64,000 nt of DNA from Candidatus Gottesmanbacteria bacterium (GCA_016186795.1 JACPKY010000002.1:90593-154592); one strand, 5' to 3'; numbered from the stretch's first letter, positions 12,957-53,748 are shown. Notes: a model not told the origin generated them from the letters alone. Translations and numbers: made by a program.

Positions 12957-14657
12957 ATGGACCTTGACCAAAAAATACTGCCAATTCTTATCAGTAAAGG
13001 GATTATTTCCCAAAGTATCGCCGATGAAGTAAAGCAAATCTCAATAAATACCGGTCTTTCCATTGTCGAAATACTCCTCAAGAAAAGCCTCATTGCAGAA
13101 GATGATTTATTAGCGGTGAAAGCCGAAATTTACCACGTTCCATTTTTGTCTCTCGTTGGTCGTGGAATTTCTCCTGAAATATTAACTCTCATTCCCGAAC
13201 CCGTTGCAAGGAAATACAAGATCATTCCATTTGAACTTGATCACCCAACGGATAAATTGAAAGTAGCGATGGTTGACCCTCTCGATCTTCCAACCGTCGA
13301 GTTCTTGGAGCAAAAGTCCGGAAAATCAATTTTCCCTTATCTTGCCAAAGAAGTAGAAATACTAGAAAAGATCGAAGAGGTCTATACTGCAGGGTTATCT
13401 GCAGAAGTCACAGAGGCGTTAAAAGATACCGCCGATTCCGAAACTGCTCGTCAAGATCCGAATCTTATTAATAAAATCATCAAGGAAGCGCCCGTTTCCA
13501 AAATTGTTGCCACAATTTTGGAATACGCCATGCGCAGTCGGGCATCTGATATTCATATAGAGCCGCATGAGACACGAACAAGGGTGCGATACAGAATTGA
13601 TGGAATTCTCCATGAACGATTAGCTCTTCCCAAGTCTGTTCATGAGGCGGTTATATCACGTATCAAAATTCTTTCCGATATGAAAATAGACGAGCGCCGA
13701 ACTCCGCAAGATGGCCGTTTCACATTTAAGTTCGGTGGAGATGAGGTTGACCTTCGTGTTTCGACACTTCCCACAGTTCATGGTGAGAAGGTAGTCATTC
13801 GTCTGTTAAAAAAAACCGGCGGTATTCCAGAACTTCCGGAATTAGGCCTCCGTGGTACCACCCTCAAAGTATTGGAAAACGCCATTACCAGACCTCACGG
13901 TATTATTCTTGTGACCGGTCCGACGGGTTCGGGAAAAACAACAACGCTGTATTCTGTTTTATCCCGTCTTAACACTCCGAAAGTAAATATTGTCACACTA
14001 GAAGATCCAGTCGAGTATGAAATATCGGGATTAAATCAAGTCCAGATAAATCCTGCAGCCGGGCTTACTTTTGCAAACGGCATTCGATCGTTTCTTCGGC
14101 AAGATCCGAATATTATTCTTGTTGGAGAAATCCGTGATGGTGAAACAACCGGACTTGCAGTTCAAGCTGCCTTGACGGGACATTTAGTTTTCTCAACACT
14201 TCATACCAATGATGCCTCAACTGCAATTCCGAGACTGCTTGATTTAGGGGCTGAACCGTTTCTTATCGTGTCAGTTCTCAATGCCGTTTTGGCTCAAAGA
14301 ATTACAAGAAGAATTTGTACGTTTTGTAAAGAGTCATACACTCCCCTTCCTGCAGTGATTACCGATATAAAACAGGTTTTAGGGAAACTTTTCCCAGAGG
14401 GGAAAGAGACGCCACTCTATCGTGGAAAAGGATGTAAGGAATGCAACAACACAGGGTATCTTGGAAGAATTGGCATTTTCGAGGCGATAAATGTCACTGC
14501 CTCCTTATCAAAAATGATCATCGAGCATGCCACGGCCGGACAAATTGAAAAACAAGCTCTTGAAGAAGGACTCATCACCATGAAACAAGATGGGTATCTG
14601 AAAGTGTTGGATGGGACAACGACAATTGAGGAAGTTATAAGAGTCGCACAGGAATAA
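12957..14657 (+). CDS. pilB: type IV pilus assembly ATPase PilB (GspE family)
   Basis: An N-terminal GSPII_E_N-type domain is present. The Walker A motif LVTGPTGSGKTTTLY is followed by Asp/His boxes and a tetracysteine motif CTFCKES...CKEC. Confidence 0.9.
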   Translation: MDLDQKILPILISKGIISQSIADEVKQISINTGLSIVEILLKKSLIAEDDLLAVKAEIYHVPFLSLVGRGISPEILTLIPEPVARKYKIIPFELDHPTDKLKVAMVDPLDLPTVEFLEQKSGKSIFPYLAKEVEILEKIEEVYTAGLSAEVTEALKDTADSETARQDPNLINKIIKEAPVSKIVATILEYAMRSRASDIHIEPHETRTRVRYRIDGILHERLALPKSVHEAVISRIKILSDMKIDERRTPQDGRFTFKFGGDEVDLRVSTLPTVHGEKVVIRLLKKTGGIPELPELGLRGTTLKVLENAITRPHGIILVTGPTGSGKTTTLYSVLSRLNTPKVNIVTLEDPVEYEISGLNQVQINPAAGLTFANGIRSFLRQDPNIILVGEIRDGETTGLAVQAALTGHLVFSTLHTNDASTAIPRLLDLGAEPFLIVSVLNAVLAQRITRRICTFCKESYTPLPAVITDIKQVLGKLFPEGKETPLYRGKGCKECNNTGYLGRIGIFEAINVTASLSKMIIEHATAGQIEKQALEEGLITMKQDGYLKVLDGTTTIEEVIRVAQE

Positions 14658-14658
14658 T

Positions 14659-15726
14659 ATGGACATTCAAGAACTACTTACCGTTGCGGTAACACGAAAT
14701 GCATCAGATCTCCATATTGTCAGTGGACATCTCCCCACGATCCGTGTGCAGGGAGAACTTCATCCCCTGGTCACGTATCCGGAGATTACAGCAGATGAGA
14801 TCGAGAAGATGGTTTTTTCTTTACTTACCGGTACCCAAAAAGATCTTCTTGTCACAAATAGAGAGTTAGATTTTTCCGTCGTCTATGAATTTGAAGGCGG
14901 TAGAACTGTCCGATTCCGCACAAACGCCTACTATCAGAAAGGAACGCTTGCTGCGGCATTTCGGGTCATTCCTGGTATTGTTCCTACACTTTCGGAACTT
15001 CATTTACCGGCCGACCTTATCGAATTTACAAAATTGAAGCAAGGATTAGTTCTTATTACGGGTGCAACTGGACAAGGAAAGTCAACCACACTTGCCTCAC
15101 TTATTAACGAAATCAATAAATCGCGTCGTGTCCACGTTGTGACGATTGAGGATCCTATTGAGTATGTCTATCCCAAAGAAAAGGCAATGATTTCTCAAAG
15201 AGAAATGTATGGAGATACGCACTCTTGGGCTTCTGCGTTGAAAGTAGTACTTCGCGAAGATCCCGACGTTGTCTTTATTGGGGAGATGCGTGATTTGGAG
15301 ACAGTTGCGTCAGTTCTCACGATTGCAGAAACAGGACATCTTGTTTTTTCCACCCTCCATACCAATACTGCGGCTCAGACGATCGATAGAATTATTGATA
15401 TATTTCCACCGGTAAAACAAGATCAGGTAAAGCTGCAACTTTCCATGGTTCTTGCTGGAACAGTGACGCAGCGTTTAGTACCTGGAGTTGACGGGATGAG
15501 ACTTCCGGTTTGCGAAGTGCTTGTAGGAACTGCCAGTATTAAAAATACCCTTCGTGAGGGAAAAACTCACCTTATTGATAATATTATCCAAACATCATCA
15601 GACGTTGGAATGCGACTTTTTGAGGAGGATTTGAAGGATAAAGTGAAAAACAACCTTATTACTCACGAAGTAGCACTCGAATACGCCTTTCGTCCAGATA
15701 CGTATCTTCAACTTATTGAACGCTAA
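14659..15726 (+). CDS. pilT: type IV pilus retraction ATPase PilT
   Basis: The Walker A motif ITGATGQGKSTTLASL and HLVFSTLHTNTAAQTIDRI are present. The protein is about 355 aa with no N-terminal extension, which fits PilT. Confidence 0.85.
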   Translation: MDIQELLTVAVTRNASDLHIVSGHLPTIRVQGELHPLVTYPEITADEIEKMVFSLLTGTQKDLLVTNRELDFSVVYEFEGGRTVRFRTNAYYQKGTLAAAFRVIPGIVPTLSELHLPADLIEFTKLKQGLVLITGATGQGKSTTLASLINEINKSRRVHVVTIEDPIEYVYPKEKAMISQREMYGDTHSWASALKVVLREDPDVVFIGEMRDLETVASVLTIAETGHLVFSTLHTNTAAQTIDRIIDIFPPVKQDQVKLQLSMVLAGTVTQRLVPGVDGMRLPVCEVLVGTASIKNTLREGKTHLIDNIIQTSSDVGMRLFEEDLKDKVKNNLITHEVALEYAFRPDTYLQLIER

Positions 15727-15735
15727 CTTACCTTT

Positions 15736-16935
15736 ATGCCACGTTTTAGCTACCGAGTGAAAGATCAACTAGGGAAGACAGTGAAAGGTCTTGTGGAGGG
15801 GAAATCGGCAAAACACGCTTTAAACCTTCTTCATGAACGGGGATTTTTTGTTATCTCTCTTAAAGAAGCGGGAGAACCATTTGCTATTCGAATTCACTCA
15901 TCGGGTATTTCTTTTAATGACCTTGTTCACTTCACCCGGCAACTTTCAACCATGATCACATCAGGACTTACCCTTGCTGATGCGTTGGGGATTTTGCAGC
16001 AGCAGATCAAGAAACCAAATCTTATTCGCCTCGTGAATCAGGTTGAGGATGATGTTCAAGGTGGGAAATCTTTTGCAGAATCATTAGAAAAGTACCCTGA
16101 TACATTTCCCCCGATTTATCTCGCACTGGTTCGTGCAGGGGAAGCGTCAGGAAAATTGGATGTTATTCTCTCAAGACTTGCGGATAATCTGGATAAATCG
16201 AGAGAGTTTCGAAATAAAATTCGCGGCGCACTCACCTACCCTGCTATCGTTGTTGGTGGCCTTGGGGCAGTATCAATCATTGTTATAACAGTGGTTGTAC
16301 CAAGACTTACCAAACTGTATACGGAATTCGGGGTAGAGCTTCCTCTTCCTACACGGATTCTGATTGCACTTTCAAATCTCATGATAAATTCATGGTACTT
16401 GGTTATTGGCGTCCCGGTTGTTTTCGGAATTCTTTTTCTTCGGTGGAAAAAAACAAAACTTGGACAAAGGATAGTCGCGCAAACTCTCATGCGGCTTCCG
16501 ATTCTTGGACCTCTTATTCGGGAATCAACGCTCGTTGAGATTACTCGAACGCTTGCCCTTTTGGTTGATGGGGGTGTTCCGATACTAACCGCACTTCAAA
16601 TTGCTCAAGATGCGACAGGGAACATTCTTTTTAAAGAAGCGTTTGCGGATGCAGCTAAAAAAGTAGAAAAAGGGTTTGCATTATCTGAGCCGTTTTCCGT
16701 TAATCCGATTTTTCCTCCAATATTGGGACAAATGGTTGCCGTTGGTGAACAGACTGGGAAACTCGGTGATTCTCTCTACAAACTTTCCCACTATTTTGAG
16801 ACGGAAGCAGATGCAGTTGTTAGAACCTTGACAACTATGATTGAACCACTTATCATGGTTATATTAGGCTTGGGAGTTGGGTTTTTAGTCATTGCAGTTC
16901 TTGTTCCAATTTATTCCCTGACAAGCAAATTTTAG
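15736..16935 (+). CDS. pilC: type IV pilus inner-membrane platform protein PilC (GspF family)
   Basis: The 399-aa ORF has two GspF-like repeats, each with a TM segment and conserved G..L.E.L blocks. Confidence 0.85.
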   Translation: MPRFSYRVKDQLGKTVKGLVEGKSAKHALNLLHERGFFVISLKEAGEPFAIRIHSSGISFNDLVHFTRQLSTMITSGLTLADALGILQQQIKKPNLIRLVNQVEDDVQGGKSFAESLEKYPDTFPPIYLALVRAGEASGKLDVILSRLADNLDKSREFRNKIRGALTYPAIVVGGLGAVSIIVITVVVPRLTKLYTEFGVELPLPTRILIALSNLMINSWYLVIGVPVVFGILFLRWKKTKLGQRIVAQTLMRLPILGPLIRESTLVEITRTLALLVDGGVPILTALQIAQDATGNILFKEAFADAAKKVEKGFALSEPFSVNPIFPPILGQMVAVGEQTGKLGDSLYKLSHYFETEADAVVRTLTTMIEPLIMVILGLGVGFLVIAVLVPIYSLTSKF

Positions 16936-16957: not shown

Positions 16958-17560
16958 ATGAAAGGGGGTGAGAAAATTCAAATGAATAGGATAACATTGC
17001 GTGCCCGAGAAGGTTTTACCATGATCGAGCTCCTTATCGTTATCGCTGTTTTGGGTTTTCTTGCCGTGGCGGTTTTGTCTGCAATTAATCCAATAGAACA
17101 AATAAATCGAAGTAAAGATACAGCCAGTCGGTCTGATGCTGAGCAGCTAATTTCTGGATCGGACAGGTATTACACCCAGAAAGGGTATTATCCCTGGATG
17201 GGAGCTGTTGATGATGTAACAAACCAGTTTGCATTTAACAATGCAAGCTTAGTCAAAGTTGCGACAAATAATACCGATGTAAACCGAGCTTTAACTGCAT
17301 TATCAACCAATACCAGTGAGCTCAAAAGTTCATTTATCACAAGAATTACAGCAGGTGATTACAATCCTCTTTACTTTTTCAATCGAGGATTACAGGGAGA
17401 TAGTGTATACATATGTTTTCTCCCTAAATCGAAAGCATTTGTCGATGATGCATGGACGAGATGTGGTGGTGCGGGAGGAACAGGATTACCGACTGATCTA
17501 ATCCCTGCGAATGCTCAACTTTGTCAGAATGCAAATACAGCGTATGCGTGTCTGCCGTAA
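16958..17560 (+). CDS. pilA: type IV pilin (probable major pilin), class III signal peptide
   Basis: A prepilin cleavage/methylation motif REG|FTMIELLIVIAVLGFLAVAVL is present. It sits directly after pilBTC. The start may instead be the internal Met at 16982. Confidence 0.8.
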   Translation: MKGGEKIQMNRITLRAREGFTMIELLIVIAVLGFLAVAVLSAINPIEQINRSKDTASRSDAEQLISGSDRYYTQKGYYPWMGAVDDVTNQFAFNNASLVKVATNNTDVNRALTALSTNTSELKSSFITRITAGDYNPLYFFNRGLQGDSVYICFLPKSKAFVDDAWTRCGGAGGTGLPTDLIPANAQLCQNANTAYACLP

Positions 17561-22062: not shown

Positions 22063-23058
22063 ATGAAAAAGAAGACCATTTGTTTTGTTGTCTGGAATAC
22101 CAAAAAAAGTGGAGGGCTTGCAGTTATTGCAAAACAGGCAGCGTGGATTGCAAGTCTTGGTCACAACGTTTCTGTTTGTACCATTGTCCCGGGAGATCGG
22201 AATCTTTTCCCCAAAAATATCCCTTTTTTTTCTCCTTTCCAGTTTTGGAACATGAGGAAGTTTTACGATATTGTCATTGCCACTTTCTGGCCGACTGCCT
22301 ATCTTTTACCATTCATAAACTCGGCAAAAAGGGTGTATTTTGTGCAAGGGTGGGAGCCTGGTTTTTCTAAAAATATCATCCTTTCAAGACTTGCCCAAGA
22401 AACATACTCTTTTCCTTATTTTACCATTACTGTTTCTCCGTATCTTTCAGAAAAACTGCAAAAGTACAAATCTTCGCATGTTCCCATCGTATCCCCTGGT
22501 ATTGATCGGACTTTCTTCCGTGTTAGGCCAAAAAGACGCCCAAGGCGTCCCTTTTGCCAAATATTTTCAGTTCTGTCAACCTACGATTATCCCAAAGGAG
22601 TCGATATACTTATTGACCTTGTCCGGAAAATTAAAAAATCATACCCATCATTTCGTTTCGCGTTAGCTTCTTATGAAAAGAATCCTCCAAGTCCTGATTT
22701 TGATGTTTTTTATACGAATCCGTCTCAAATGCTTCTTCGTCAGTTGTATTCTCAAAGTGATCTTTTCCTCCATACTTCAAGGAGCGAAGGTTTTCCTCTC
22801 CCTCCTTTGGAAGCGATGGCAAGTAGTTGTCCGGTCATTGCAACAGATTCCGGGGGGATTCGTGCGTATGCCAAGGATAGATACAACTGTTTCCTTTTTA
22901 ATCGTCCTGAGAAACTCATAACGGACAGACTTATCGAAAAAGTTTGGAACAATACAAAAACGCGTCGCTTTCTTATTCGAAACGCCTATCGTACAGCTCA
23001 ACAATTCAGCTGGGAGCATTCTTTGAAAGCTTGGGAGAAAGAACTTTTTCATTCATAA
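22063..23058 (+). CDS. glycosyltransferase family 1 (GT4-like)
   Basis: SRSEGFPLPPLEAMASSCPVIATDSGGIRAY matches the GT1/GT4 E-x7-E donor-binding motif. Confidence 0.75.
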   Translation: MKKKTICFVVWNTKKSGGLAVIAKQAAWIASLGHNVSVCTIVPGDRNLFPKNIPFFSPFQFWNMRKFYDIVIATFWPTAYLLPFINSAKRVYFVQGWEPGFSKNIILSRLAQETYSFPYFTITVSPYLSEKLQKYKSSHVPIVSPGIDRTFFRVRPKRRPRRPFCQIFSVLSTYDYPKGVDILIDLVRKIKKSYPSFRFALASYEKNPPSPDFDVFYTNPSQMLLRQLYSQSDLFLHTSRSEGFPLPPLEAMASSCPVIATDSGGIRAYAKDRYNCFLFNRPEKLITDRLIEKVWNNTKTRRFLIRNAYRTAQQFSWEHSLKAWEKELFHS

Positions 23059-23065
23059 TAGAGGT

Positions 23066-23851
23066 ATGGTTATCTCGGCAATTGTTTTTTTCATAGGTAC
23101 CCTCATAGGTTCATTTCTCAACGTTGTGATTGATCGAATTCCCGCCAATCGATCGATCATCAGAGGGAGATCTCACTGTGATTTTTGTAAACATGTACTT
23201 GGTCCACGCGATTTAGTCCCTATTATCTCGTTTCTTCTCCTGAGGGGGCGATGCCGTTTCTGTCACAAAAAGATATCCGTCCAGTATCCTCTGGTTGAAC
23301 TATTCACAGGCAGTCTTTTTCTAGGAGTATTTGCAACATACGTTACCTCGCAGTACCTAAGCGTAAAAGGTCTTTTCATCCAACTTCTCCCCTCTTGGGT
23401 TCTTATCTCGTGTTTCATTGTGATTTTTGTTACCGATTTAAAGTATACCCTCATTCCTGATGAGGTAATTATCCTTTCGGGAATTGCCGCTTTCATTCTC
23501 ATAGGAGGAAGTGGAGATGGGAGGGCAATTTGGGAAAATCTGGTTTCCGGCGGGATTTTTTCCTTGATATTTTTTTTTCTCTTTTTCATAACGCGTGGAA
23601 AAGGCATGGGATTTGGCGATGTGAAACTGTCGTTCGTATTAGGACTTATCTTGGGACTACCCAGGATAATAATTGCCTTTTATCTCTCTTTCTTGACAGG
23701 AGCCATTGTTTCTTTGATACTGTTACTACAGGGGAAAAAGAAACTAAAAAGTACAATTCCGTTCGGACCGTTTCTCGTGGTCGGAACTGTAATTGCGTAT
23801 GTTTGGGGGGATACATTATGGGTTTTGTTTAAACGGATTGTTGGGATATGA
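23066..23851 (+). CDS. pilD: prepilin peptidase PilD (A24 family)
   Basis: An N-terminal Zn-binding CxxC...CxxC (CDFC...CRFC) is present. It has about 8 TM helices and the catalytic Asp blocks of A24 peptidases. It is immediately followed by the pilin array. Confidence 0.9.
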   Translation: MVISAIVFFIGTLIGSFLNVVIDRIPANRSIIRGRSHCDFCKHVLGPRDLVPIISFLLLRGRCRFCHKKISVQYPLVELFTGSLFLGVFATYVTSQYLSVKGLFIQLLPSWVLISCFIVIFVTDLKYTLIPDEVIILSGIAAFILIGGSGDGRAIWENLVSGGIFSLIFFFLFFITRGKGMGFGDVKLSFVLGLILGLPRIIIAFYLSFLTGAIVSLILLLQGKKKLKSTIPFGPFLVVGTVIAYVWGDTLWVLFKRIVGI

Positions 23852-24342
23852 ACAAAGAACAAAGAACAAAGAACAAAAAACTGTTCACCGTTCACTGTTC
23901 ACTGTTTACTGATTCCGGTATTACTCTTGTTGAACTTCTTATCGCAATGGCAATTATTACCATACTTGCCGCAGTGTCATTTGGAAACTTTACCAGTACG
24001 CTTATCAAAGGAAGGGACTCGCGAAGAAAACAGGATTTGGAAGCAATTGGGAAGGCGGTTGAGCTTTACTATAATGATATGAAGGCATACCCAACGAGTA
24101 TACCAGCAGGAGGAACTTCGTTCGTCAATCCAAATGACGGGACTGTCATTTATATGCAGAAAATTCCAACTGATCCCCAGAATGCGACAACGCAGTATTG
24201 TCTACTCTCTACCGATGGGACATATTTTCAACTTTACACTCGATTGGAAAATCAGAACGATCCAAGTCTTATTCCGACCATTACGTGCAATTCCATCAAT
24301 GGTTATAACTACGGTCTATCAAGTCCGAATACAACACCATGA
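23848..24342 (+). CDS. pilin/pseudopilin with prepilin-type N-terminus
   Basis: The leader MNKEQRTKNKKLFTVHCSLFTDSG is followed by ITLVELLIAMAIITILAAV (hydrophobic alpha1 with Glu+5). Confidence 0.75.
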   Translation: MNKEQRTKNKKLFTVHCSLFTDSGITLVELLIAMAIITILAAVSFGNFTSTLIKGRDSRRKQDLEAIGKAVELYYNDMKAYPTSIPAGGTSFVNPNDGTVIYMQKIPTDPQNATTQYCLLSTDGTYFQLYTRLENQNDPSLIPTITCNSINGYNYGLSSPNTTP

Positions 24343-24896
24343 AGAAAAAAATCCCAAATCCCAAATTCCAAATCCCAAATACATTACAAATTCCAAATTC
24401 TAGACATTGGAAATTGAAAATTGAAAATTGGAAATTCCTGGCGGAGCCAGGCTTTACTCTCATTGAACTTTTGGTTGTGATTGCGGTCTTGGCTTTCCTT
24501 TCGGCTCTTCTTCTTCCAAATTTCGTAAGTACCAGGCAGCGTGGTCGAGATGTGCAGCGAAAATCAGATCTCAAGCAAATCCAGAGTGCCCTTGAATTAT
24601 ATAAACTTGACCAAAGTCCGCTTATCTATCCTTCGAGCATGCCTGTTAGTCTTTGTGGTAAGTGCTGGACTTCAGGAGGATCGGGTGCAACGTGTCCATC
24701 TGGCAATGTCTACATCCGTAAATTTCCATGTGATCCGAAAGCTTTGACAACGCCAACACCGTATGTATATGCACGAGATAGTGGAGACTCCTTAAAATAT
24801 ACGCTCTCTTCGTGTTTAGAGAATCCTGCCGATAGCGATCGGGATCAAACATCAGTGTGTGGTACAGATGCTAGTTATACTGTTGCCGAACCATAG
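24339..24896 (+). CDS. pilin/pseudopilin with prepilin-type N-terminus and long repeat-encoded leader
   Basis: ...KFLAEPG|FTLIELLVVIAVLAFL carries a prepilin motif. The leader is 38 aa and built of IPN-K-Q heptad repeats. Confidence 0.75.
   Translation: MKKKIPNPKFQIPNTLQIPNSRHWKLKIENWKFLAEPGFTLIELLVVIAVLAFLSALLLPNFVSTRQRGRDVQRKSDLKQIQSALELYKLDQSPLIYPSSMPVSLCGKCWTSGGSGATCPSGNVYIRKFPCDPKALTTPTPYVYARDSGDSLKYTLSSCLENPADSDRDQTSVCGTDASYTVAEP
24347..24437 (+). repeat. degenerate heptanucleotide tandem repeat (AAATYCC-like) encoding a pilin leader
   Basis: The sequence is aaatccc aaatccc aaattcc aaatccc aaataca ..., then attggaaattgaaaattgaaaattggaaattcc. The 30-mer recurs at 25856-25888. Confidence 0.8.
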
Positions 24897-24907
24897 GAGG
24901 AAACTAT

Positions 24908-25354
24908 ATGAAAATTCCAAATCTCAAATATCAAATCCCATGTAAATTTCAAGTATCCAGGAAATTCCAGCCTCTGGCTGGTTTTACTCTCCTTGAGCTT
25001 TTGGTTGTGATATCAATTTTGGCAATTCTTATCACTCTTGCTCTTACGTCATTTTCAACCGCTCAGAAAAAGGGGAGAGATGCCAAAAGAAAAAGTGATG
25101 TCCGAGAAATTCAAAGTGCTCTAGAGCAATACTATAGTGTATGCGGGTATAAATATCCGACTCCCACAAATTTCTATTCTGTGGGCATTTACTGTAATAG
25201 TCCGTCAATTGGGATTCTCCCAACTGTTCCTACTGATCCCAAGGGTACTCCCCCATATTACTGTGGAGGGACATGTGATAATTCAGGGTTCCAGGTATGT
25301 GCAGTACTCGAGGCAGAGTCGCCAACTGGATTTTGCGTATCAAATCAACAATGA
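24908..25354 (+). CDS. pilin/pseudopilin with prepilin-type N-terminus
   Basis: ...KFQPLAG|FTLLELLVVISILAIL carries a prepilin motif. Confidence 0.75.
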   Translation: MKIPNLKYQIPCKFQVSRKFQPLAGFTLLELLVVISILAILITLALTSFSTAQKKGRDAKRKSDVREIQSALEQYYSVCGYKYPTPTNFYSVGIYCNSPSIGILPTVPTDPKGTPPYYCGGTCDNSGFQVCAVLEAESPTGFCVSNQQ

Positions 25355-25794
25355 GAACAAAAAACAAAAATCTGTTTTCTGATTCCGGGTTTACTCTAAT
25401 TGAGCTTCTTGTTGCTTCAACAATTATAGCACTTTTATCAACGATTGGTTTTACCAGTTTTCAGGCCTTAACTCGAAACGGACGAGATGCTCTTCGAAAA
25501 ACTGATCTTGAACAAGTCAGGTCAGCTCTTGAAATTTACAAATCTGAGAACGGAAGTTACCCGACACCGACTGTAACGTGTGTTCCAGCTCTTCCTTCAA
25601 GTTATATATCCTATCCATCAGATCCGAAATCACCAACTTACCGTTACTGTTACGATTGGACAAGTGCTCTTCAGTATAAACTGTGTGCCCATTTGGAAAA
25701 TGGAGATCCTTCTCAGGATTATGAATGTGATGGTAATGGAGGGACGACGGATGATTGTACCGATAACTGTAACTACAAGGTAACAAACCCATAA
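25352..25794 (+). CDS. pilin/pseudopilin with prepilin-type N-terminus
   Basis: The start is trimmed to MRTKNKNLFSDSG|FTLIELLVASTIIALL. The longer ORF upstream overlaps the preceding pilin gene. Confidence 0.7.
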
Positions 25795-26406
25795 ATGGAA
25801 ATCCCAAATTCCAAATCTCAACGTTCAAATAAATCTCAATTATCAAAATCCAGATATTGGAAATTGAAAATTGAAAATTGGAAATTCCAGCCTCTGGCTG
25901 GTTTTACCCTCATAGAACTGATTGTTTCCATCTCTGTTATTTTCATCTTAGTAGGGATGACATTTGCCGGCTTTGCCAGCTTGAATCAGAGACAAACTCT
26001 TCTATCTTCTGGCCAAACAGTGAAAAATATGTTGCGTGATGCACAGAGCCGTGCTATAAACGGGGAGGTTGACTGTTCCGTTTGTAACTGTTCCCAAGGA
26101 TCAACGATACTTTCCGGATGGTATGCAGATTTTGATTCCCGCACTATTTATGGGAAATGTGGAACAAATGTGTTTCCAACAGCCGGTCAGCCATTTGGAG
26201 TATCGGTGGAAATTACGATTGTTCCACACCTTACTCCTCCTACGGTTTTGACGTTCAAATCATATCCACCTGGAACTGACCAAAAAGCAACAATCTGCAT
26301 GTCGCAAACAAATCTTGCCGATCAATACTATGTTATTCGGGTAGGTCAGGGTGGAGAGATAAGTGATGATGGAAGGTTAGTTGCGTCGTGTGAGCCAACA
26401 CCATGA
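25795..26406 (+). CDS. minor pilin-like protein with long repeat-encoded leader
   Basis: ...WKLKIENWKFQPLAG|FTLIELIVSISVIFIL carries a prepilin motif. It shares a near-identical 30-nt leader segment with the gene at 24339. Confidence 0.65.
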   Translation: MEIPNSKSQRSNKSQLSKSRYWKLKIENWKFQPLAGFTLIELIVSISVIFILVGMTFAGFASLNQRQTLLSSGQTVKNMLRDAQSRAINGEVDCSVCNCSQGSTILSGWYADFDSRTIYGKCGTNVFPTAGQPFGVSVEITIVPHLTPPTVLTFKSYPPGTDQKATICMSQTNLADQYYVIRVGQGGEISDDGRLVASCEPTP

Positions 26407-26873
26407 AGAGAAATTTTCAATTTAATGAAAACGGTCAGACTATTCTTGAGGTTCTTATTGCTCTTGCTCTCATAATCCTTTTTTTATCTGGAGTAATTAT
26501 TGTTGAGCTTTTCTCCTTACGAAATGCTCAGTATGCACAGAATAAGAGTATTGCAACACACCTTGCCAGACAGCAGTTGGAGCGGGCGCGGGTTGTTCGA
26601 GATACGGCAGGAATTGATGCCTTAAGTATCTGTACGTCTGCTAATCCCTGCTTTATAAATCCGAGCCTTACGCCGACTCAAGTCCTTCCGACTGGAACGT
26701 ATGAACAGCAATTGGTTGTTACCGATGCCACGGTAACTGAGTGTCCCCTTCCGACGGTAACACCCCCTCCGGTCAATTACAAGGCAAGTGTAACTATTTC
26801 ATGGGCACAAGGAGCACAGCTAACACCCGCACCAGAAGTCTCGTTATCCACATGCATTACTGATTGGAGATGA
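26403..26873 (+). CDS. pseudopilin-like protein
   Basis: NENGQ|TILEVLIALALIILF is a degenerate prepilin N-terminus that keeps Glu+5. Confidence 0.5.
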   Translation: MKRNFQFNENGQTILEVLIALALIILFLSGVIIVELFSLRNAQYAQNKSIATHLARQQLERARVVRDTAGIDALSICTSANPCFINPSLTPTQVLPTGTYEQQLVVTDATVTECPLPTVTPPPVNYKASVTISWAQGAQLTPAPEVSLSTCITDWR

Positions 26874-26874
26874 A

Positions 26875-27417
26875 ATGAAAAGTCAAAAGGCCGGCTTTAC
26901 CCTCATTGAACTAATGATTGTTATCACTCTCGTAGGGATTATTGGAACAATCACCACCCAGGTATTTTTGATTAATGTTCGTTCTCAAAACAAAAGCGAG
27001 ATTGTGAAAGAAGTCAAACAAAACGGTGATTACGCCTCTGCAGCAATGGAGATCATGATCAGAAATGCCATCGATGTGCCTTCTTTACAGTGTAATGCGC
27101 AAGCTGCCGATCAGCTAACCATCACGAACCAGGATGGCAATTCGACAACGTTTGACTGTTCTGATGATATTAAAATTGCATCAATAAGTAGCACGTTTCC
27201 CTCTTTGCCTCAGTCATTGACAAGTTCAAAAGTCAAAGTGACGGGTTGCTTTTTCAAAATTATCTGTCCTACTCCCCCACTCTCCCCAAAATATGTCTAT
27301 ATGGGCTTTCGAGTGTGCCAGACAGGAGACGATCCGTGTCCTGGTGGCACAAATTTTTCCGTCGATACCCGGGCGTCGTTGGAATACGAGACAACGGTGA
27401 CACTACGAAATTATTGA
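26875..27417 (+). CDS. pilin/pseudopilin with prepilin-type N-terminus
   Basis: MKSQKAG|FTLIELMIVITLVGIIG carries a prepilin motif with a short leader. Confidence 0.7.
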   Translation: MKSQKAGFTLIELMIVITLVGIIGTITTQVFLINVRSQNKSEIVKEVKQNGDYASAAMEIMIRNAIDVPSLQCNAQAADQLTITNQDGNSTTFDCSDDIKIASISSTFPSLPQSLTSSKVKVTGCFFKIICPTPPLSPKYVYMGFRVCQTGDDPCPGGTNFSVDTRASLEYETTVTLRNY

Positions 27418-27555
27418 TACGTGCTTCTTGACAAAACTATAGGATAGTGATATAGTTTGATGGACCAATGAATACCCACTTTTTTTATTACGAGAGCATC
27501 TTTGAGAGGATCTTTTTCCAAGATCTTCTTTTTACAAGAAGATATACATCAAACT

Positions 27556-27584
27556 AACCTGCAGTAAGTGCAGGTTTTTATTTA
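27556..27584 (+). terminator. rho-independent terminator ending the pilD-pilin operon
   Basis: ACCTGCAgtaagTGCAGGT is a 7-bp stem, followed by TTTTTATTT. Confidence 0.5.
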
Positions 27585-27603
27585 GTGACCGTAAAACCAC
27601 GAT

Positions 27604-29844
27604 ATGCACGAAGGTGATCCAACACAAGGACCTGGTATACTAGATAGAATGGGAGAAGGCGGAATATCACCAGACATGGTAGGGCCGGAATTTGTCCGTC
27701 TTCAAGCACTCCAGGAATTGGGACTTCCTGAGAAAGCGGATGTTGTTCCCTACTCAGTTGGTAGATGGGGAAAAGATGCATCGACTGGACTTCTGTTAGC
27801 TTTGGGAGCAGGAGTCGCTTCTTCTGGTACTAGATCCGGTGATCCATCTTCTTCAGATGGTGGTGGAAATGACTCTACCCAATCTGTCCGTCGTCCTGAT
27901 GGTATAGTATCAAGAAGAGGATTCTTAGGATTGGTTGCTACCGCTTCGGCTGCAGCAGCATTGGCTGCTTGCACTTCACCCGCTCAACGAACCCAAGCCT
28001 CGGCTCCTGTTCCTGAAGGCGGTAATCCCCCAGTTCCTCCTGGTCCTACCCCAACGATTGAAATTAAGACGGGCGCTGTTGCAAGTTTGGAGAAGGATTT
28101 TGATACATCAGACGAAACTGAACTTCTGAATAGTATTCGTCAACATTTTTCCCAACAACTGGATGCTTTACGAGCGCAATTTCCTCAAGAAAGAATTCCC
28201 TCAATGCGACTTTCCGTCAATACGACTGAACTTTTAGAAAATGGTAAACATGGATTATCAATTGAGCTTACTGAAATTGAAGGGAAAAGAAAATATGCAT
28301 ACTTTGGATATGATACGAATGGGCAGGGAGGAGCTTGGGTTTCACTCCCTCAGGATGTTACCTATTACACTGATCCTGACGGAAATTACTATAGTGACCG
28401 ATTTGATAGTACGAGTACTCGTTGGCAGCCGATTTTCCAGGATAATGATGGAAATATTTTCCGAAACAGACTTGGAATGTTGGTAGGATTAGGTTCAAAT
28501 GAGATAAAACTGGGGATAACCGAAAATTCTGCTGCTACATCTCAATTTCTCACGAGGGTTGGGGCACGTCTGCATGATTTCGTTCGGGATGAAGTCTTTC
28601 TTCAAGGGGGAAATTCTCAGAGAATATATGACGAACGGGCAAATAATGCTACATTTCTTATGAAAGTAAAGTATGATACAAGATTAAAGCAGTTATATGG
28701 CGTTATCGAGCGGACACGCATTTGGAACGGTCAAGAAACAAGGGAAATCTTCATCGTCCGGCAAGACGGTCAGTTTTTCCAAATCAAGCCGTTGGCGAAA
28801 GGTCCAGGAGGCGAAGAGTACGGATACCGACTCAATCGCCAGAGTGGTCTTATCGAAGTAGTACGGAATGGTGAGCAGCAAGGTGAGGTAAAGGACTTTG
28901 ATAATACTGGAGAGGCACGGACAAATATTGCCGGTGTAAGCACTATTCAACAGCAAGAAGAACTGCCTACTCCACCACCTCAACCAAATACTCCAGAGCC
29001 GACAGCAACAATTCAAGTTGTACTACAGGCTACAGCAGTCCCGACAGCAACAGTTGAACCAATAAAAACACCGGAGCCGGAGATCGATCCCCATCCATAC
29101 TCAGTTGTTCGTACTATAGATTATGGTAGTCTTGATAGTTCATTGTTTAATAATGGAATAGAACAACAAGGATATTATGTGTCAAGTCCACCATTCCAAA
29201 ATGAACAATCATTTGCCGAAATTATTGATGATCCTACAGGGCAATTTGGTGGAAAAGTTGTTCATGCAGTTATAAAAGGACCACCTCCTCCTCATGATAC
29301 AAAAAAGTGGGGACCAGCACATCGTGATTATTATGGATTTGATCCTGCTGATTTGGAACAAAACGGCTCGTATGCAGTAGAATTTGACCACCTAGTAGTT
29401 CCTACCAAACAAGTCCTGAAAGCCACTGGGAATGGTCCAGATGCATGGAACAGTGTTATCTCCTTAGGAGTGGTGGATAAGAACCAAGGGGGGTGGCCAT
29501 ATAGAGTTGTTGCTGGAGTTGATTTAGTTACAGTTGGTCCATATCCCCATCTTCGTCCTTATGCAGTATATCCTGATGGTATTTCCCGGATAGTTGATTT
29601 TAAGGACGGTCAACCAGAATTCCATTTTGGTATAAAGACTAAGATTCGAGTTGAACTGGTTGATATGGGAGACAGTCAGCGTGTATATATTTTTCAAGAC
29701 GGAGTTTTTGTAGGAGAAACGAGATTAAGATTACCCCCCGGTGTTAAATTATCACAAGGAAACATAAGGACTCCGGGAGGGTACGCGGGAGCGGCGGTTA
29801 CCGATCTTGAATCTTACTCAGGTGAAGTGAAAATACTTAGTTAA
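27604..29844 (+). CDS. large secreted protein with internal twin-arginine-like signal and Pro-rich linkers
   Basis: SRRGFLGLVATASAAAALAAC (RR motif, hydrophobic core, AxA/C) sits about 100 aa from the ORF start. A PTPPPQPNTPEPTAT linker is present. The gene is visibly GC-richer than its neighbours. No catalytic motif is recognised. Confidence 0.55.
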   Translation: MHEGDPTQGPGILDRMGEGGISPDMVGPEFVRLQALQELGLPEKADVVPYSVGRWGKDASTGLLLALGAGVASSGTRSGDPSSSDGGGNDSTQSVRRPDGIVSRRGFLGLVATASAAAALAACTSPAQRTQASAPVPEGGNPPVPPGPTPTIEIKTGAVASLEKDFDTSDETELLNSIRQHFSQQLDALRAQFPQERIPSMRLSVNTTELLENGKHGLSIELTEIEGKRKYAYFGYDTNGQGGAWVSLPQDVTYYTDPDGNYYSDRFDSTSTRWQPIFQDNDGNIFRNRLGMLVGLGSNEIKLGITENSAATSQFLTRVGARLHDFVRDEVFLQGGNSQRIYDERANNATFLMKVKYDTRLKQLYGVIERTRIWNGQETREIFIVRQDGQFFQIKPLAKGPGGEEYGYRLNRQSGLIEVVRNGEQQGEVKDFDNTGEARTNIAGVSTIQQQEELPTPPPQPNTPEPTATIQVVLQATAVPTATVEPIKTPEPEIDPHPYSVVRTIDYGSLDSSLFNNGIEQQGYYVSSPPFQNEQSFAEIIDDPTGQFGGKVVHAVIKGPPPPHDTKKWGPAHRDYYGFDPADLEQNGSYAVEFDHLVVPTKQVLKATGNGPDAWNSVISLGVVDKNQGGWPYRVVAGVDLVTVGPYPHLRPYAVYPDGISRIVDFKDGQPEFHFGIKTKIRVELVDMGDSQRVYIFQDGVFVGETRLRLPPGVKLSQGNIRTPGGYAGAAVTDLESYSGEVKILS

Positions 29845-29858
29845 CGATTTTTGGGAAG

Positions 29859-30788
29859 CTAGGATAAAAATAGATGAGAAATCGCCTCTGCTAAATACCG
29901 TATCTTTGCTTTCTTATGAAACCAGTGAGTCCGACTCATTAAAATTAATACAGAATAAACTACTAATCTTATACTAAAGCCCCAAAATAATATAATAAAA
30001 CAGATATACACATAGGCAGTCGAATAATATTTCCGTAAGTAATATTTCATACTTCTGATATATATTTTTCCATTCTTCTCCCCATGAAAACTTTGATGTT
30101 CGTAATGGATAGCCTCTGCTGATGGAGTGTATTTAATTTTTAGACCTAAGCTTTGGAATCTTTTACATAAGTCTAAATCTTCAAAATACAAAAAAAAGTT
30201 TTCATCGAATCCTTTCACATCATGAAAGGGTCTCATTCGAATAAGCATACATACTCCACTTACCGCAGAGATGTTTTTCACCCTCATATATAACTTGCGG
30301 TTGGAAAATGAATGTTCAAAGTGAGAAGGGAATAATTTATATACATACGTTTGTTCAAGAAAAATATTTTTAAGATTTACTTCTGGGAGGATCGTATACT
30401 CCAATTTATCTTCATCGGTTAATATTTTGGGAGCAATAATTGCTACATTTTTAATGGACGTATATTCAATTAGATTTTTGAGTAAATTCTTCTTCGCAAT
30501 AGTATCTGGATTAATTATGAAAAACCAGTCACTTTCTACATATCTCGATCCTATATTGATTCCTTTTGCAAAACCTTGATTATCTCTATTTTTAATAAAT
30601 CTAACTTTTAAATTCGGATCTAAATTAATGTTTGCCTCCGAAGTACCATTTAAAACGATAATAAACTTAATTTCTATATTTGCGCATAGCGCTGATTGAT
30701 GGAGGCTTGAGATACAAGAACTAAGATATTTTTTGTCCTCTTCAACTACCAGAATTATTCCGGAAATAAATACATTCTTTTTTTTCAT
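29859..30788 (-). CDS. glycosyltransferase family 2-like
   Basis: It has a GT-A-like N-terminal fold (IIVLNGTSEA...NQGFAKGINIG...IINPD) and a C-terminal TM segment. Confidence 0.5.
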   Translation of the reverse strand: MKKKNVFISGIILVVEEDKKYLSSCISSLHQSALCANIEIKFIIVLNGTSEANINLDPNLKVRFIKNRDNQGFAKGINIGSRYVESDWFFIINPDTIAKKNLLKNLIEYTSIKNVAIIAPKILTDEDKLEYTILPEVNLKNIFLEQTYVYKLFPSHFEHSFSNRKLYMRVKNISAVSGVCMLIRMRPFHDVKGFDENFFLYFEDLDLCKRFQSLGLKIKYTPSAEAIHYEHQSFHGEKNGKIYIRSMKYYLRKYYSTAYVYICFIILFWGFSIRLVVYSVLILMSRTHWFHKKAKIRYLAEAISHLFLS

Positions 30789-49620: not shown

Positions 49621-52600
49621 ATGTCGCTTGCTAAAATTTTTGCGGCTCTTATTTTCGTATGGATTGCTTTTTCGACCCTTGATATTTTCACCCCCGATAA
49701 AAACTGGTTTAGCCAATCTGCTTCTGCTCAATATTGTACATCAACTTCGCTTCAGTCACCTCCCGATATTGGATATTCAACAAGTTATGCCCAGCAAACA
49801 ATTCTGAATGGTATGAATACCGGAGATGATGCTGCCTCTATAGGAAGTAAAAATATGAATGGATATTATCCAACGGCTTGGCAGGTTCCACGAGATATAC
49901 AAGTAATCATGGTTCGGGCAAATATCACACCAGATATCGATGGACTAGATATTTATGACGGTATTCCAACCACATTTTATATAAAAGCCAATAACGCGCT
50001 TGATGCACGTGCGTATGCATATAGAATAAATTCAATACCTCTTGGGGTTCAGCATGCGATTCGAACTCACTGGGACGGTAACGCTTCATACTGTGCTTCT
50101 ACATCGACTCAGTGGTCGTATTTTACCCGGTTTAACCCTGGGTATCACCAGAGTTGCACCGCTTGGAGCGCGTGTAGTAACTCTTGTGGTACTGGTACAC
50201 AGACCAGGACCTGTTCATGCTATCGAGATACCGACAATGGCCAAGTTGACAACTCTTGGTGTGGAGACCCTTCCGAATCCCAATCATGTACGGATTACTC
50301 CGGTTGTGGTCCTTGCACGGTTTCAAACCAATCCCCAACATCTGGTTGTTTTGACTATGACCCTACTTATAGTTTGAGTATGGGTGGAGTTGGTGCAAGT
50401 CGTGCACAATTTCATATAGACACATCCAGTCCTCCTAATTCTCCATATACATGTGATAGCGGAATAACGACATCTTCCACCTATAATTGCTCACTGGCAA
50501 CAGGAAGTTATCGGTGGAATGCAGAAGTATCATCAATTCAAGGATGTACAGATTCTGGATTTTTACCATCAGCAGGATATGCCTATAGTATTGATAAAAC
50601 AGCTCCTCCAGTCCCTTCTGGACTGAATATTGTTTGTAATCCCAATGGTACTGTTACAGCTAGCTGGAATGCTGTGAGTGACACAGGGTGCGGTGGAATG
50701 TCCACCACCCCTTACTGGTCTCAGATCTCTACGAGTGCTACTTTTTCGTCAGTTCCTGATTGGTATAACAGCTGGATAAATGAAACCTCAAGAACAAGCT
50801 CGACAACCTTTGCACCAGGAACCACAGTCTATGCGCATGTAAGAAGCCGGGATTCATTGGATAATCAGTCTTCCTGGAGTGCAAATGATTCGTGTACGTT
50901 TCCATTACCTACCAATACCCCAACGCCAACCCGAACCCCAACTCCAACTCCAACGAGAACGCCGACTCCGACACTACCTCCATGCTCACTATCAAACCAA
51001 CTCCCCCTCTCTGGTTGTTATGGCACAGATCCTACATATTCCGCCACTCTCGGAGGTGGTGCCAATAGAATCCAATTCCATGTAGATACAAGTTCTCCTC
51101 CGAATAGTCCGTATATCTGTGATAGTGGGGTCACTGCATCAACTTCATATTCCTGTACATTAGGAACAGGTACGTACTATTGGAATGCGCAAGCAAGTTC
51201 CTCTACAGGATCGTGTACAACCTCTGCCTATGTTCCTGTAAATGGCTACTCAGTAAGTGTTGATAAAATAGCACCAATTATTCCTCTCCCGAATATTGTA
51301 TGTAACACGAATGGGACAGTAAGTGTTTCCTGGGGGGCAGTAAGCGATGCAGGCTGTGGAGGGATGTCTTCTACTCCCTATTGGTCTCAAATTTCCACCG
51401 ATCCCGCTTTTGGGACAGTTCCAGACTGGTATAATAGTTGGATCAATGAGACGTCACGTACTAGTACAACGACATTTGCAGCTGGAACGATAGTCTATGC
51501 GCATGTAAGAAGCCGAGATATCTTTGATAATCAATCACCATGGAGCCCAAATGATAATTGTACTTTTCCTACACCTACTCCAACTCGAACTCCAACACCG
51601 ACCCCCACCCGGACACCTACTCCTACTGCTACCAGAACTCCAACTCCAACACCACTTGTCGGCTGTTGGGGAGCATGTACCGGTGACGCACAGTGTGCTT
51701 CTGGGAACTGTGATCCCTTCCTCCTCCAATGTACCGGCGGATCATGTCCAACGGCAACACCAACGATTACGCCGACTCGTACTCCTACTCCAACACCTAC
51801 AAGGACACCAACACCTACTGCTACCAGAACTCCAACACCAACTCCCACAAGAACTCCAACTCCGACACCTTTAATCCAATGTTTGGGGTCTTGTACTGCT
51901 GACGAAGAGTGTGCCTCGGGCAATTGCGACCCCTTCTATCTCCAATGTACCTCCGGTCCAGGAGGACCATGTCCGACATTTACGCCTTCCCCTACTAATA
52001 CTCCCACTCCCACCCCAACCCGGACACCAACCCCTACTCCTACCCGAACTCCGACACCAACGCCAACTGCAACTAGAACACCAACGCCAACACCGACAAT
52101 TACTCCAACACCAACTCCAACATCTGTTGCATGTTGGGGTGCCTGTACAGGAGATGCCCAGTGTGCATCCGGAAACTGCGACCCGTTCCTTTTGCAATGT
52201 ACCGGTGGGTCATGTCCAACGGCAACACCGACAATTACTCCAACGAGAACACCAACGCCAACTGCAACCAGAACACCAACGCCAACTGCAACCAGAACCC
52301 CAACGCCAACGAATACACCGACCCCAACGAATACTCCAACTCCAACGCCGGCTGCTTGTAACGACAGCTGTACCGGAAATGAACAATGTTTATCAGAATA
52401 TTGCTATCCATTTACTCTGTCGTGTAGAAATATTAGTTGTCCTGATAATACAAACTGTATTTGTGGACCAACACCCACAGCTACCCCCACGAATACGCCG
52501 ATACCAACAAATACACCAACGCCGACAGTTACTCCAACCCCAGGATTTGGGCAGTGCAGTGGTGCGTGCACTTCCGATGTCGATTGTTCGGGCTCAACCG

Positions 52601-53748
52601 GTTATTGTTACCCTTTTTATCTTCTTTGTAGAAATGTAAGCTGTCCAGAAAATGCTTCGTGCGACTGTTCACAACTTCAGCCAAGTGCAACTCCGACGCC
52701 AACCATTACACCTTCCGTTACACCAGGCGGGCCAACATTAACGCCAACTCCCCCCTTAACGCCAACACCAACGATTCAGGCCGGAATGTGTAACGCAACG
52801 TGTTCATCAGATTTAGAATGTGCTCCTTCAACAAACTATTGTGATCCTTACATTCTTCAGTGCAGAAATGCGTTATGTAGTGCCGATATTGACTGTGACT
52901 GTGCAACAGCAAACCCAACGATTACTCCAACATCTCCTCCTGGTGCAACGGCGACGCCATCTCCTACTCGTACACCGACTCCAACAGCATCGACTACTCC
53001 TGCGCCTGATGCATGGACGCAAGTTCTCGGAGGAGATGTAAGTTTTTCCTCCCTTACAGAAACAATTCCTCATAACGAGTACTTTCTTGATGAGATTCCT
53101 AATGCACCGAACAGCTCTGGAATTATTTTTGGAAACGATGTGACATTTACGTATGATTCCCAAACGGAAAATACGGCTTCTCCAGATCGCTGGATCGTAA
53201 AGACAAGTACAACTTTGACGAATTCGTATTCATATGACTATTATTACGAACTTTTAAAAGGACAAGCGGTAAATAGTTCAGGAACCGTTGTCGGGAGTGG
53301 GTTGGCATTTGATAAAAACATCTATTATTATTCTGATGCTTCTGGAGCGTTTACCCTTGATTCGAATTTGGAAAATGGAATTCTGGGAGGATCAGTCCAA
53401 GCTGTCGTTTTTCTCATTGACGGTTCTCTTACCATAGACCAATCGTTTGCTCCAAATCCTTCAAGCAAAACTCCAGTATTTATTGTTCGGGATACTATTA
53501 CAGTCAGTGGCAACATTGGTACTCTCTCAGGTATCTATATTTCGGGTGGAGCATTTACCGTTGCGGATGGGTCGGCGACACGTTTTATTCTCAATGGTAT
53601 GGTATATGCGAACGATCTTATTCTGCAAAAGACCTATCAGAGTTTGACTCTTCCAGCACACCAGTTTATTTATCAACCGAAATATATTCTTGATCTTCTC
53701 CCCTATCTTGGGCGAGCACAAGTGAACTGGCAGGAGGTAACACCATGA
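49621..53748 (+). CDS. giant secreted Cys-rich tandem-module surface protein
   Basis: An N-terminal signal peptide is present. A TSP1-like motif reads [19 protein letters not shown]. Two roughly 230-aa paralogous domains (..SPPNSPY.CDSG..) are followed by six 6-Cys modules ([23 protein letters not shown]..CP) separated by (PT)n/TPTPTRTP linkers. The C-terminal domain is about 250 aa. Confidence 0.8.
50905..52990 (+). repeat. intragenic low-complexity Pro/Thr-linker repeats (ACN-CCN) interleaved with repeated Cys-module coding units
   Basis: ccaac(N)ccgac(N)cc runs recur directly at least 8 times. These repeats create the many spurious overlapping ORFs seen in other frames. Confidence 0.85.

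Follow-up and report, generated by a model that had tools for sequence, protein, structure and literature searches.

A 64,000-nt stretch of Candidatus Gottesmanbacteria DNA (the window) carries seven tightly packed, same-strand pilin-like genes (g1-g7) downstream of a prepilin peptidase gene, and in four of the seven the leader that precedes the prepilin cleavage site is unusually long and is encoded by tandem arrays of a 7-nt unit. The explanation that we prefer, tentatively and at a little less than an even chance, is that these are quasi-palindromic, recombining tandem-repeat cassettes that have grown in situ and are tolerated in a cleaved leader or in a spacer, and that they do not work as a frameshift switch. 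The window lies on a 1.118-Mb contig, and its g2 protein matches at 100% identity an NCBI entry from Candidatus Gottesmanbacteria, which belong to the Microgenomates within the candidate phyla radiation (CPR). The gene cluster reads as follows.

23066-23851, plus strand: prepilin peptidase (PilD-like; A24_N_bact 1.6e-33, Peptidase_A24 3.8e-15), its stop overlapping the g1 start in ATGA
23848-24342, plus strand: pilin-like gene g1 (N_methyl 2.7e-6), 24-aa leader at 23848-23919 (MNKEQRTKNKKLFTVHCSLFTDSG, followed by ITLVELL)
24339-24896, plus strand: pilin-like gene g2 (N_methyl 5e-6), 38-aa leader at 24339-24452, its ATG overlapping the g1 stop
24908-25354, plus strand: pilin-like gene g3, 25-aa leader at 24908-24982
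25351-25794, plus strand: pilin-like gene g4, true start 25351, 13-aa leader at 25351-25389 (MRTKNKNLFSDSG)
25795-26406, plus strand: pilin-like gene g5 (N_methyl 0.0016, below the Pfam cut-off), 36-aa leader at 25795-25902, TAAATG junction with g4
26403-26873, plus strand: pilin-like gene g6, short leader, no arrays
26875-27417, plus strand: pilin-like gene g7, short leader, no arrays
27556-27576, plus strand: terminator-like hairpin and T-run beyond g7, likely where the operon ends

All seven genes show the type IV prepilin motif (Gly at -1, Phe or another hydrophobic residue at +1 and Glu at +5, ahead of a hydrophobic helix; GFTLIEL and GITLVEL are visible) and match PF07963 N_methyl in Pfam, g5 and g6 under Pfam's cut-off, while the mature pilins are small and T2SS-G/type IVa-like (PF08334 matches). 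As befits class III signal peptides, the gene of a cognate peptidase lies directly upstream of the pilin genes (23066-23851), and its product is the enzyme expected to remove the leaders. The stretch before the motif (GFTL(I/L)EL in g2, g3 and g5), cleaved after Gly, measures 24 aa in g1, 38 aa in g2, 25 aa in g3 and 36 aa in g5, beyond the short leader (about 5-10 aa) of type IVa prepilins, whereas g4, g6 and g7 have short leaders; g6 and g7 serve as internal controls because they combine short leaders with the absence of arrays. Type IVb prepilins also have long leaders (about 15-30 aa) before a conserved Gly, removed by prepilin peptidase, but those leaders are not repeat-encoded and the mature proteins here are T2SS-G/type IVa-like.

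Tandem arrays were called with Tandem Repeats Finder (TRF). Eight of the nine period-7 arrays of the window sit in pilin 5' ends, and no strong array was found elsewhere in the window. The arrays and the GC-rich mini-hairpins that accompany some of them are listed here.

23850-23881, plus strand: g1 arm 1, GAACAAA in 4.6 copies (TRF)
23880-23911, plus strand: g1 arm 2, ACTGTTC in 4.6 copies, directly after arm 1 (TRF)
24349-24400, plus strand: g2 arm 1, AAATYCC array with its core at 24349-24380 (4.6 copies, 92% matches)
24406-24438, plus strand: g2 arm 2, ATTGGAA/ATTGAAA array (TRF 24406-24436, ATTGAAA, 4.4 copies)
24437-24451, plus strand: g2 GC mini-hairpin, CCTGGC-GGA-GCCAGG, abutting the Gly-Phe codons, terminator-like
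24911-24952, plus strand: g3 array, degenerate AAATYYC (TRF 24918-24937), repeat family D5
24967-24981, plus strand: g3 GC mini-hairpin, CCAGCC-TCT-GGCTGG, abutting the Gly-Phe codons, terminator-like
25356-25370, plus strand: g4 short array, AACAAAA in 2.1 copies, then CTGTTTTCTG
25799-25847, plus strand: g5 arm 1, AAATYCC-like (TRF 25799-25821)
25856-25888, plus strand: g5 arm 2, a 33-mer shared with g2 (TRF 25856-25886)
25887-25901, plus strand: g5 GC mini-hairpin, CCAGCC-TCT-GGCTGG, abutting the Gly-Phe codons

The window arrays are degenerate (75-96% matches) and hold about 4.5 copies (4.4-4.6). Allowing up to two mismatches, AAATYCCAAATYCCAAAT, built on the AAATYCC motif, has six matches, all in these leaders, against 0.07 expected, and among 175 prepilin sites (168 from among the matches listed, in 80 loci of diverse phyla, plus the window's seven) the window leaders rank at the top for period 7. 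The original prediction, made from the window's DNA alone, was that three of the pilin genes have long leaders encoded by runs of an AAATYCC-like 7-mer and that two of them share a nearly identical repeat. The leaders of 38, 25 and 36 aa (g2, g3 and g5) are real, TRF returns period-7 arrays at 24349-24400, 24406-24436, 24918-24937, 25799-25821 and 25856-25886, and the shared repeat is an exact 33-mer common to 24406-24438 (g2) and 25856-25888 (g5); if anything the prediction was understated, having missed the 24-aa leader of g1.

Inverted, partly complementary pairs of arrays are found in g1 (GAACA versus TGTTC) and in g2 and g5 (CCAAAT versus ATTGG), so that the cassette is quasi-palindromic and lies between a canonically placed start codon and the Gly-Phe cleavage codon. 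The arms of the g1 cassette (23850-23911) pair GAACA with TGTTC around 2-nt internal loops, the best partner of arm 1 among 21 cassettes is its own arm 2, and the predicted RNA fold of -18.9 kcal/mol (z = -3.8) is equalled by none of 200 shuffles. The g5 cassette (25799-25901), which is 77% identical to the g2 cassette over 128 nt, also folds well (z = -2.6, 3/200 shuffles as stable), the stem-loops of g1 and g5 being periodic, while the g2 and g3 leaders fold no better than shuffled sequence. Across the 21 two-array cassettes, true arm pairs have a mean duplex energy of -15.1 kcal/mol compared with -5.3 kcal/mol for mismatched pairs (p = 2e-8), so arm complementarity holds generally. Through repeat families D3 and D6, g4 is joined to g1, and the g4 leader is the short, unexpanded counterpart of the g1 cassette.

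The long leaders of g1, g2, g3 and g5 are almost certainly translated. Neither g1, which starts with the ATG at 23848, nor g3 has any other in-frame ATG, GTG or TTG, and a GGAGGA Shine-Dalgarno sequence stands 7 nt before the g3 ATG. The starts of g1, g2 and g4 overlap the preceding stop in ATGA and that of g5 lies in TAAATG, a coupled position at which the window ATGs are orthologous to the starts of the closest relative found (L084, described below). That the repeats are instead non-coding spacers, with translation starting downstream to give short leaders and with the long open reading frames (ORFs) being gene-calling artefacts, is extremely unlikely. Such a reading could draw on an in-frame TTG that lies 13 codons before the cleavage site in g2 and g5, and on the many related genomes that have arrays upstream of a short-leader start; the TTG, however, has no properly spaced Shine-Dalgarno sequence. 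The reading frames themselves also argue for translation, since at 83 array-bearing sites of related loci the pilin frame is open across the array in 50 cases and the other two frames in 23 and 8, and since in the ATTGRAA array of arm 2 the two in-frame TGR triplets are TGG while the two out-of-frame ones are TGA. The median gap from the upstream stop to the start is -4 nt for genes with in-ORF arrays and +2 nt for array-less genes, and the peptides encoded within the leaders include FQIPNTLQIPNSR and IENWK. A true start downstream of the repeats, which the original prediction had named among the outcomes telling against it, is made very unlikely by the unique starts of g1 and g3, the g3 Shine-Dalgarno sequence and the coupled start positions.

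L084, whose g2 is 72% identical, has the same peptidase and seven-pilin operon, with short leaders (e.g. MNTKTAG), tightly packed genes and no arrays, the exception being a mini-palindrome in g5 (AAATTCGAAATTCGAATTTC, AAATTCG in 2.9 copies); the arrays were thus added in particular lineages, between the cleavage codon and a start position that is conserved. In another genome of the Microgenomates (L082/L083) every pilin gene shows the array architecture of the window, but the units differ, being ATTGCTCA/AACAATGG, CAGTCAA/ATCTGTT, AACCCAC with an upstream non-coding AGTTATG arm, and ATTTTCA, in arrays that are mostly perfect and hold 3.8-4.7 copies. One sharply bordered cassette of about 87 nt is identical in its g1 and g2 paralogs, and inspection revealed no flanking direct repeat of the target-site duplication kind.

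For a census, the loci already found were combined with 80 metagenomic loci retrieved with a C-terminal profile of the g2 family, and TRF was run on the resulting 553 kb, which include 85 Microgenomates-type loci. The commonest period was 7, followed by 9 and 8. Of 84 strong period-7/8 arrays, 71 lay in the 160 nt before a prepilin cleavage codon, a zone that makes up 12% of the sequence; of the 13 elsewhere, three are pilin leaders too and two lie in frame inside a prepilin peptidase gene. At L143:3767-3861, TTTCCAA in 5.1 copies and then ATTTATC in 4.6 copies stand in frame in a prepilin peptidase ORF, where the cassette inserts roughly 30 residues between predicted membrane segments. Arrays occur at 83 of the 392 prepilin sites of Microgenomates-type loci (about 21%), inside the leader ORF at 39 sites, partly inside at six and upstream of a short-leader start at 38, and because the cassettes at these 38 spacer sites are untranslated the feature exists at the nucleic-acid rather than the peptide level. 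The spacer-type cassettes lie in enlarged spacers (median gap 50 nt) and the in-ORF arrays have a median length of 31 nt; units are stop-free in all frames in 35/43 in-ORF versus 9/38 spacer arrays. In 337 prepilin upstream regions of related loci, perfect period-7 runs reach 4.5 copies (nine cases) and perfect period-8 runs 4.0. These limits suggest a ceiling of about 31-33 nt per arm.

In other phyla, by comparison, arrays were present at one of 166 prepilin sites (80 loci, among the matches listed), and that one belongs to Daviesbacteria, which are also Microgenomates, so we rejected the idea of a general property of pilins. A scan for the FTLIELL motif, which returned mostly unrelated phyla, yielded no strain-level variants of the exact window locus among the matches listed, and the g2 cluster has a single member. 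Our search of the literature on long or repeat-encoded pilin leaders in CPR/Patescibacteria found no description of them.

Heptamer arrays in an ORF recall contingency loci, and the original prediction had proposed that gain or loss of one 7-nt unit would frameshift the pilin. Slipped-strand mispairing would then change the unit number and produce ON/OFF frameshifts or leader-length steps of three units, an explanation that we consider quite improbable here. Its attractions are a unit length that is not a multiple of 3 within the ORF of a surface structure, and the perfect arrays of some relatives (L082), whose homogeneity suggests ongoing slippage. One precedent is provided by the Neisseria opa genes, in which CTCTT coding repeats lie in the signal-peptide region. 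The likeness lies in a repeat unit that is not a multiple of 3 in the cleaved signal-peptide coding part of a surface-protein gene, but opa has one long perfect array with frequent ON/OFF frameshifts whereas the window has short, paired inverted and often degenerate arrays with all alleles in frame. PMC5953494 gives the phasome context of opa. A second precedent is Haemophilus influenzae hmw1A/hmw2A, where (ATCTTTC)n forms part of a 5' untranslated region hairpin processed by RNase III (PMC12721329). As in the pilin cassettes, this heptamer array stands directly upstream of an adhesin or fibre gene and forms one arm of a long hairpin; the hmw arrays, however, have at least 11 repeats in nature, 10 making up a left arm that faces a G-rich arm, while in the window both arms are arrays of about 4.5 units. 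Moreover, the hmw array is untranslated and varies in copy number, whereas the window array lies in an ORF, in a predicted cleavable leader, and showed no copy-number variation; untranslated leaders of the hmw type were found at 38 related sites and not in the window.

The variation data speak against switching. We found no one-unit copy-number change between any near-identical locus pair, no frameshifted (OFF) allele among the leader alleles examined, all of which are in frame, and orthologous arrays of the same length across species; about half of the related cassettes lie outside the ORF, and the window arrays are short (4.4-4.6 copies) and imperfect (75-96%). A difference in heptamer counts between the alleles L168 (5) and L167 (3) would favour switching, but it is confounded by a 35-nt module that replaces 11 nt. 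The window's own population was also recovered in six other runs (SRR12113383/84/85/420/422/430; Logan contigs, k=31, consensus level), whose contigs are 100% identical to the window over 22348-24435, 24409-25887 and 25859-30373, breaking at the shared 33-mer because of the k=31 assembly. In two listed runs (L177 and L178, with one further sample also recording the contig) the Logan contigs stop at 24378, in g2 arm 1; in a k=31 graph such ends may mark a read-level branch, i.e. heterogeneity in that arm, which would favour switching. Contigs of two other runs read through 24378 to the shared 33-mer. An assembly artefact was considered and rejected, the Logan assemblies of six runs being 100% identical and similar cassettes occurring in NCBI, ENA and JGI assemblies. 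Frameshift phase variation by single 7-nt units, and the repeat-number polymorphism across related loci by which the original prediction was to be checked, thus failed to appear in the near-identical pairs and in the six runs' consensus.

Two further suggestions of the same prediction, that leaders would change length in frame and that the repeats are a recombination substrate between paralogs, fared better. Within one cluster of proteins at 90% identity there are at least five leader alleles, of 25, 17, 16, 12 and 6 aa, all in frame, and the alleles include a cassette-less form with its ATG inside the upstream gene, an 18-nt duplication and a GC-rich module. Two 135-aa members of this cluster were considered as OFF alleles and rejected, since both are cassette-less with an ATG 33 nt inside the upstream gene, one of them with the 18-nt duplication; the apparent truncations are gene-calling artefacts of these overlapping-start alleles. 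At L165:1900-2060 and L166:430-610 (also L085), the start of a cassette-less g2 ortholog (leader MVHRVRIQRPDG) overlaps the upstream pilin gene by 33 nt at its 3' end, in a different frame from that gene; for such alleles gene callers give a truncated protein of 135 aa that begins beyond the N-terminal helix. GC-rich hairpin modules (5-6 bp stem, 3-nt loop) in leaders show presence/absence polymorphism between proteins at least 90% identical; P0130, for example, has relative to P0019 a 30-nt insert that encodes FRQRRISLGL, and at L167:1217-1294 a GC-rich module encodes PFDYAQGK.

As for exchange, cassettes are common to paralogs, and a whole cassette may be replaced between strains: L093 and L094 have flanks that are 99% identical over 556 and 396 nt around g3 leader cassettes (88 and 98 nt) that are unrelated, the one in L093 resembling those of neighbouring paralogs. 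Between L082 and L087 the g2 and g4 cassettes are replaced. Units within one mismatch of each other make up 28% within a locus and 6.5% between loci (p = 4e-4). Close-strain pilin clusters (L146/L150/L155, L107/L133, L125/L126) are mosaics in which mature N-terminal blocks 96-99% identical alternate with unrelated segments consisting of a pilin C-terminus and the next pilin's 5' region. The Staphylococcus aureus lpl tandem paralogs (PMC2568036), whose unit of evolution reportedly consists of an ORF 3' end, the spacer and the next ORF 5' end, are likewise a mosaic cluster in which junction segments rather than ORFs are exchanged, but they belong to a different protein family and are not known to have tandem-array hairpins.

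Our tentatively preferred account, of tolerated, recombining cassettes, would run as follows. A cassette consists of a 7-nt array of about 4.5 copies (8-9 nt units in related genomes), a short spacer and a roughly reverse-complement array, in some cases with a GC mini-hairpin, and stands immediately 5' of the codons for the mature pilin N-terminus. With the start codon upstream of it, in the normal coupled position, it would, once translated, lengthen the class III signal peptide by 24-38 aa; the neighbouring prepilin peptidase, to judge by its family, would cut this extension off after Gly-1, and the mature pilin would therefore be unchanged. The most likely origin of the cassettes is growth in situ, through slippage and hairpin-templated copying, out of short inverted repeats, and recombination beside the conserved segment that codes for the N-terminal helix would spread and replace them among pilin paralogs and strains. 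Their persistence would reflect the weak protein-level constraint on the leader, unlike any other part of a pilin gene, and any effects on expression, exerted by the structure of mRNA or DNA where each cistron begins, would be secondary.

Several observations sit uneasily with this account. The g1 and g3 cassettes of L082 and L087 retain 78% and 89% nucleotide identity, more than the 59-69% of the mature coding sequence, and a perfect array of four ATTTTCA units is kept in both. Perfect arrays make up 16/43 of the in-ORF and 2/38 of the spacer arrays and never exceed 4.7 copies. The conservation, the perfect in-ORF arrays and the copy ceiling point to selection, active homogenisation or recent transfer and away from passive tolerance. 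Swapped cassettes show no homology on their 5' side, restriction to pilin 5' ends is accounted for only post hoc, through recombination between paralogs, and both the spread by gene conversion and the translation and cleavage of the leaders are inferred from sequence.

It is the excess conservation and the array homogeneity that make a selected regulatory hairpin a serious rival, although on balance an unlikely one. The paired arrays would fold in mRNA or single-stranded DNA at the 5' end of each pilin cistron and set translation initiation, RNase processing or stability, or transcriptional read-through, tuning the stoichiometry of the seven pilins. The specific complementarity of the arms, the significant folds of g1 and g5, the same cassette position whether translated or not, the conservation of cassettes above flanking coding sequence and the perfect arrays kept across species are all consistent with this, as are the GC mini-hairpins, two of the three (24437, 24967) scoring as terminator-like when the T-run of the Gly-Phe codons is counted. 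Precedents exist in hmw (PMC12721329) and in Streptococcus gallolyticus pil1, which has a leader peptide with GCAGA repeats and a stem-loop terminator (PMC3894217). The pil1 leader resembles the pilin cassettes in having tandem repeats, with a hairpin, in a translated leader upstream of pilus genes, but it is a separate small ORF of a sortase pilus in which repeat number switches expression, whereas the window leaders are fused in frame to type IV prepilins.

Other evidence runs against a selected hairpin. The closest relative has an intact operon without cassettes, only 21% of prepilin sites carry them, and the g2 and g3 folds are no better than shuffles. The GAACAAA/TGTTAYC family has no compensatory changes (0 covarying pairs, consensus -1.2 kcal/mol), its pairs being invariant AACA/TGTT. 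The sense strand of in-ORF cassettes folds less stably than the antisense strand (-17.8 versus -24.5 kcal/mol, p = 0.02; 21 cassettes of the window and L081-L136), and what is an A.C mismatch on the former is G.U on the latter. As a general attenuator the GC mini-hairpin was rejected, because its enrichment near pilin starts is just 1.5-fold and few genomes have it next to the cleavage codon. A known RNA family was rejected too, no Rfam match reaching the gathering score; the sole match, spurious and of 26.9 bits against a gathering score of 100, was to a miRNA hairpin model and lay on the minus strand at 25796-25889, in the g5 cassette.

Selection might alternatively act on the long leader peptide itself, for example through delayed processing, targeting or the marking of minor pilins, an idea to which we give hardly any credence. 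The leaders do begin Lys-rich, like class III signal peptides, and in the g1 family the A-rich and T-rich arms yield a basic and then a hydrophobic segment. Against this, the peptide sequences of different cassette families are unrelated, the DNA periodicity is perfectly kept at positions free to drift synonymously, the same cassettes are also found untranslated, and the closest relative has none.

Other classes of repeat were also compared with the cassettes. Those of the miniature inverted-repeat transposable element (MITE) type are palindromic, as the arm complementarity (p = 2e-8) shows the cassettes to be, but are dispersed in many copies at unrelated sites, whereas 71/84 strong arrays lie upstream of pilin cleavage codons. 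Tandem same-strand genes, together with imperfect palindromes that fold better on the bottom strand, led us to consider integron attC-like sites; no R'/R'' core sites were visible by inspection, an integrase not having been searched for. Cyanobacterial STRR heptanucleotide tandem repeats, which Mazel et al. are said to have described in 1990, are similarly lineage-specific and often hairpin-capable, but are reportedly dispersed and intergenic, come from another phylum and have no known tie to a single gene family or to a signal peptide; one L082 unit, CAACAGT, apparently matches STRR3. Rickettsia palindromic elements (RPEs) and other intragenic MITEs (PMC10969869) share with the cassettes an in-frame palindromic repeat at permissive ORF positions that recurs within a genome. 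RPEs, however, are about 150 bp long, dispersed in unrelated genes and without tandem short units, while cassettes of the window type measure 60-110 nt, are built of tandem 7-9-mers, are almost confined to pilin 5' ends and showed no target-site duplication.

Elsewhere in the window an eighth prepilin gene (16958-17560) lies apart from the cluster, with the leader MNRITLRAREG before FTMIELL and no arrays; it is preceded by three large ORFs (12957-16935) and may encode the major pilin beside assembly genes. A 746-aa ORF (27604-29844) with no significant Pfam domain directly follows the pilin operon. Tandem repeats of 6, 12, 24 and 30 nt (ACTCCA, CCAACG and similar) at 50917-52347, inside a 1375-aa ORF (49621-53748), look like Thr/Pro-rich linker repeats of a surface protein.

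The role of the cassettes may be regulation, variation or selfish spread. A bolder possibility, which we hold to be somewhat doubtful, is that Microgenomates carry a dedicated, actively homogenised cassette system at type IV pilin 5' ends that is exchanged between paralogs and strains and programmably controls pilin choice and amount. If so, each cassette would consist of two inverted tandem arrays of 7-9-nt units, with arms of about 31 nt, acting through hairpin processing, translation control or hairpin-dependent repeat switching, and wherever the start lies upstream the cell would translate the module and prepilin peptidase would discard it. The cassettes explain the long, low-complexity N-termini of CPR pilin annotations, mis-called starts such as the 135-aa truncated calls where the real start overlaps the upstream gene, and contig breaks, as the shared 33-mer fragments every k=31 assembly of the locus. 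They extend the idea of the in-frame palindromic element from Rickettsia to the signal peptide, suggesting that hairpin and tandem-repeat DNA can be dumped in, or carried by, a cleaved prepilin leader. Ultrasmall episymbiotic bacteria rely mainly on type IV pili to attach to hosts and take up DNA, and a lineage-wide nucleic-acid module on about one-fifth of pilin genes would offer a new handle on pilus regulation and diversification in these uncultured organisms.

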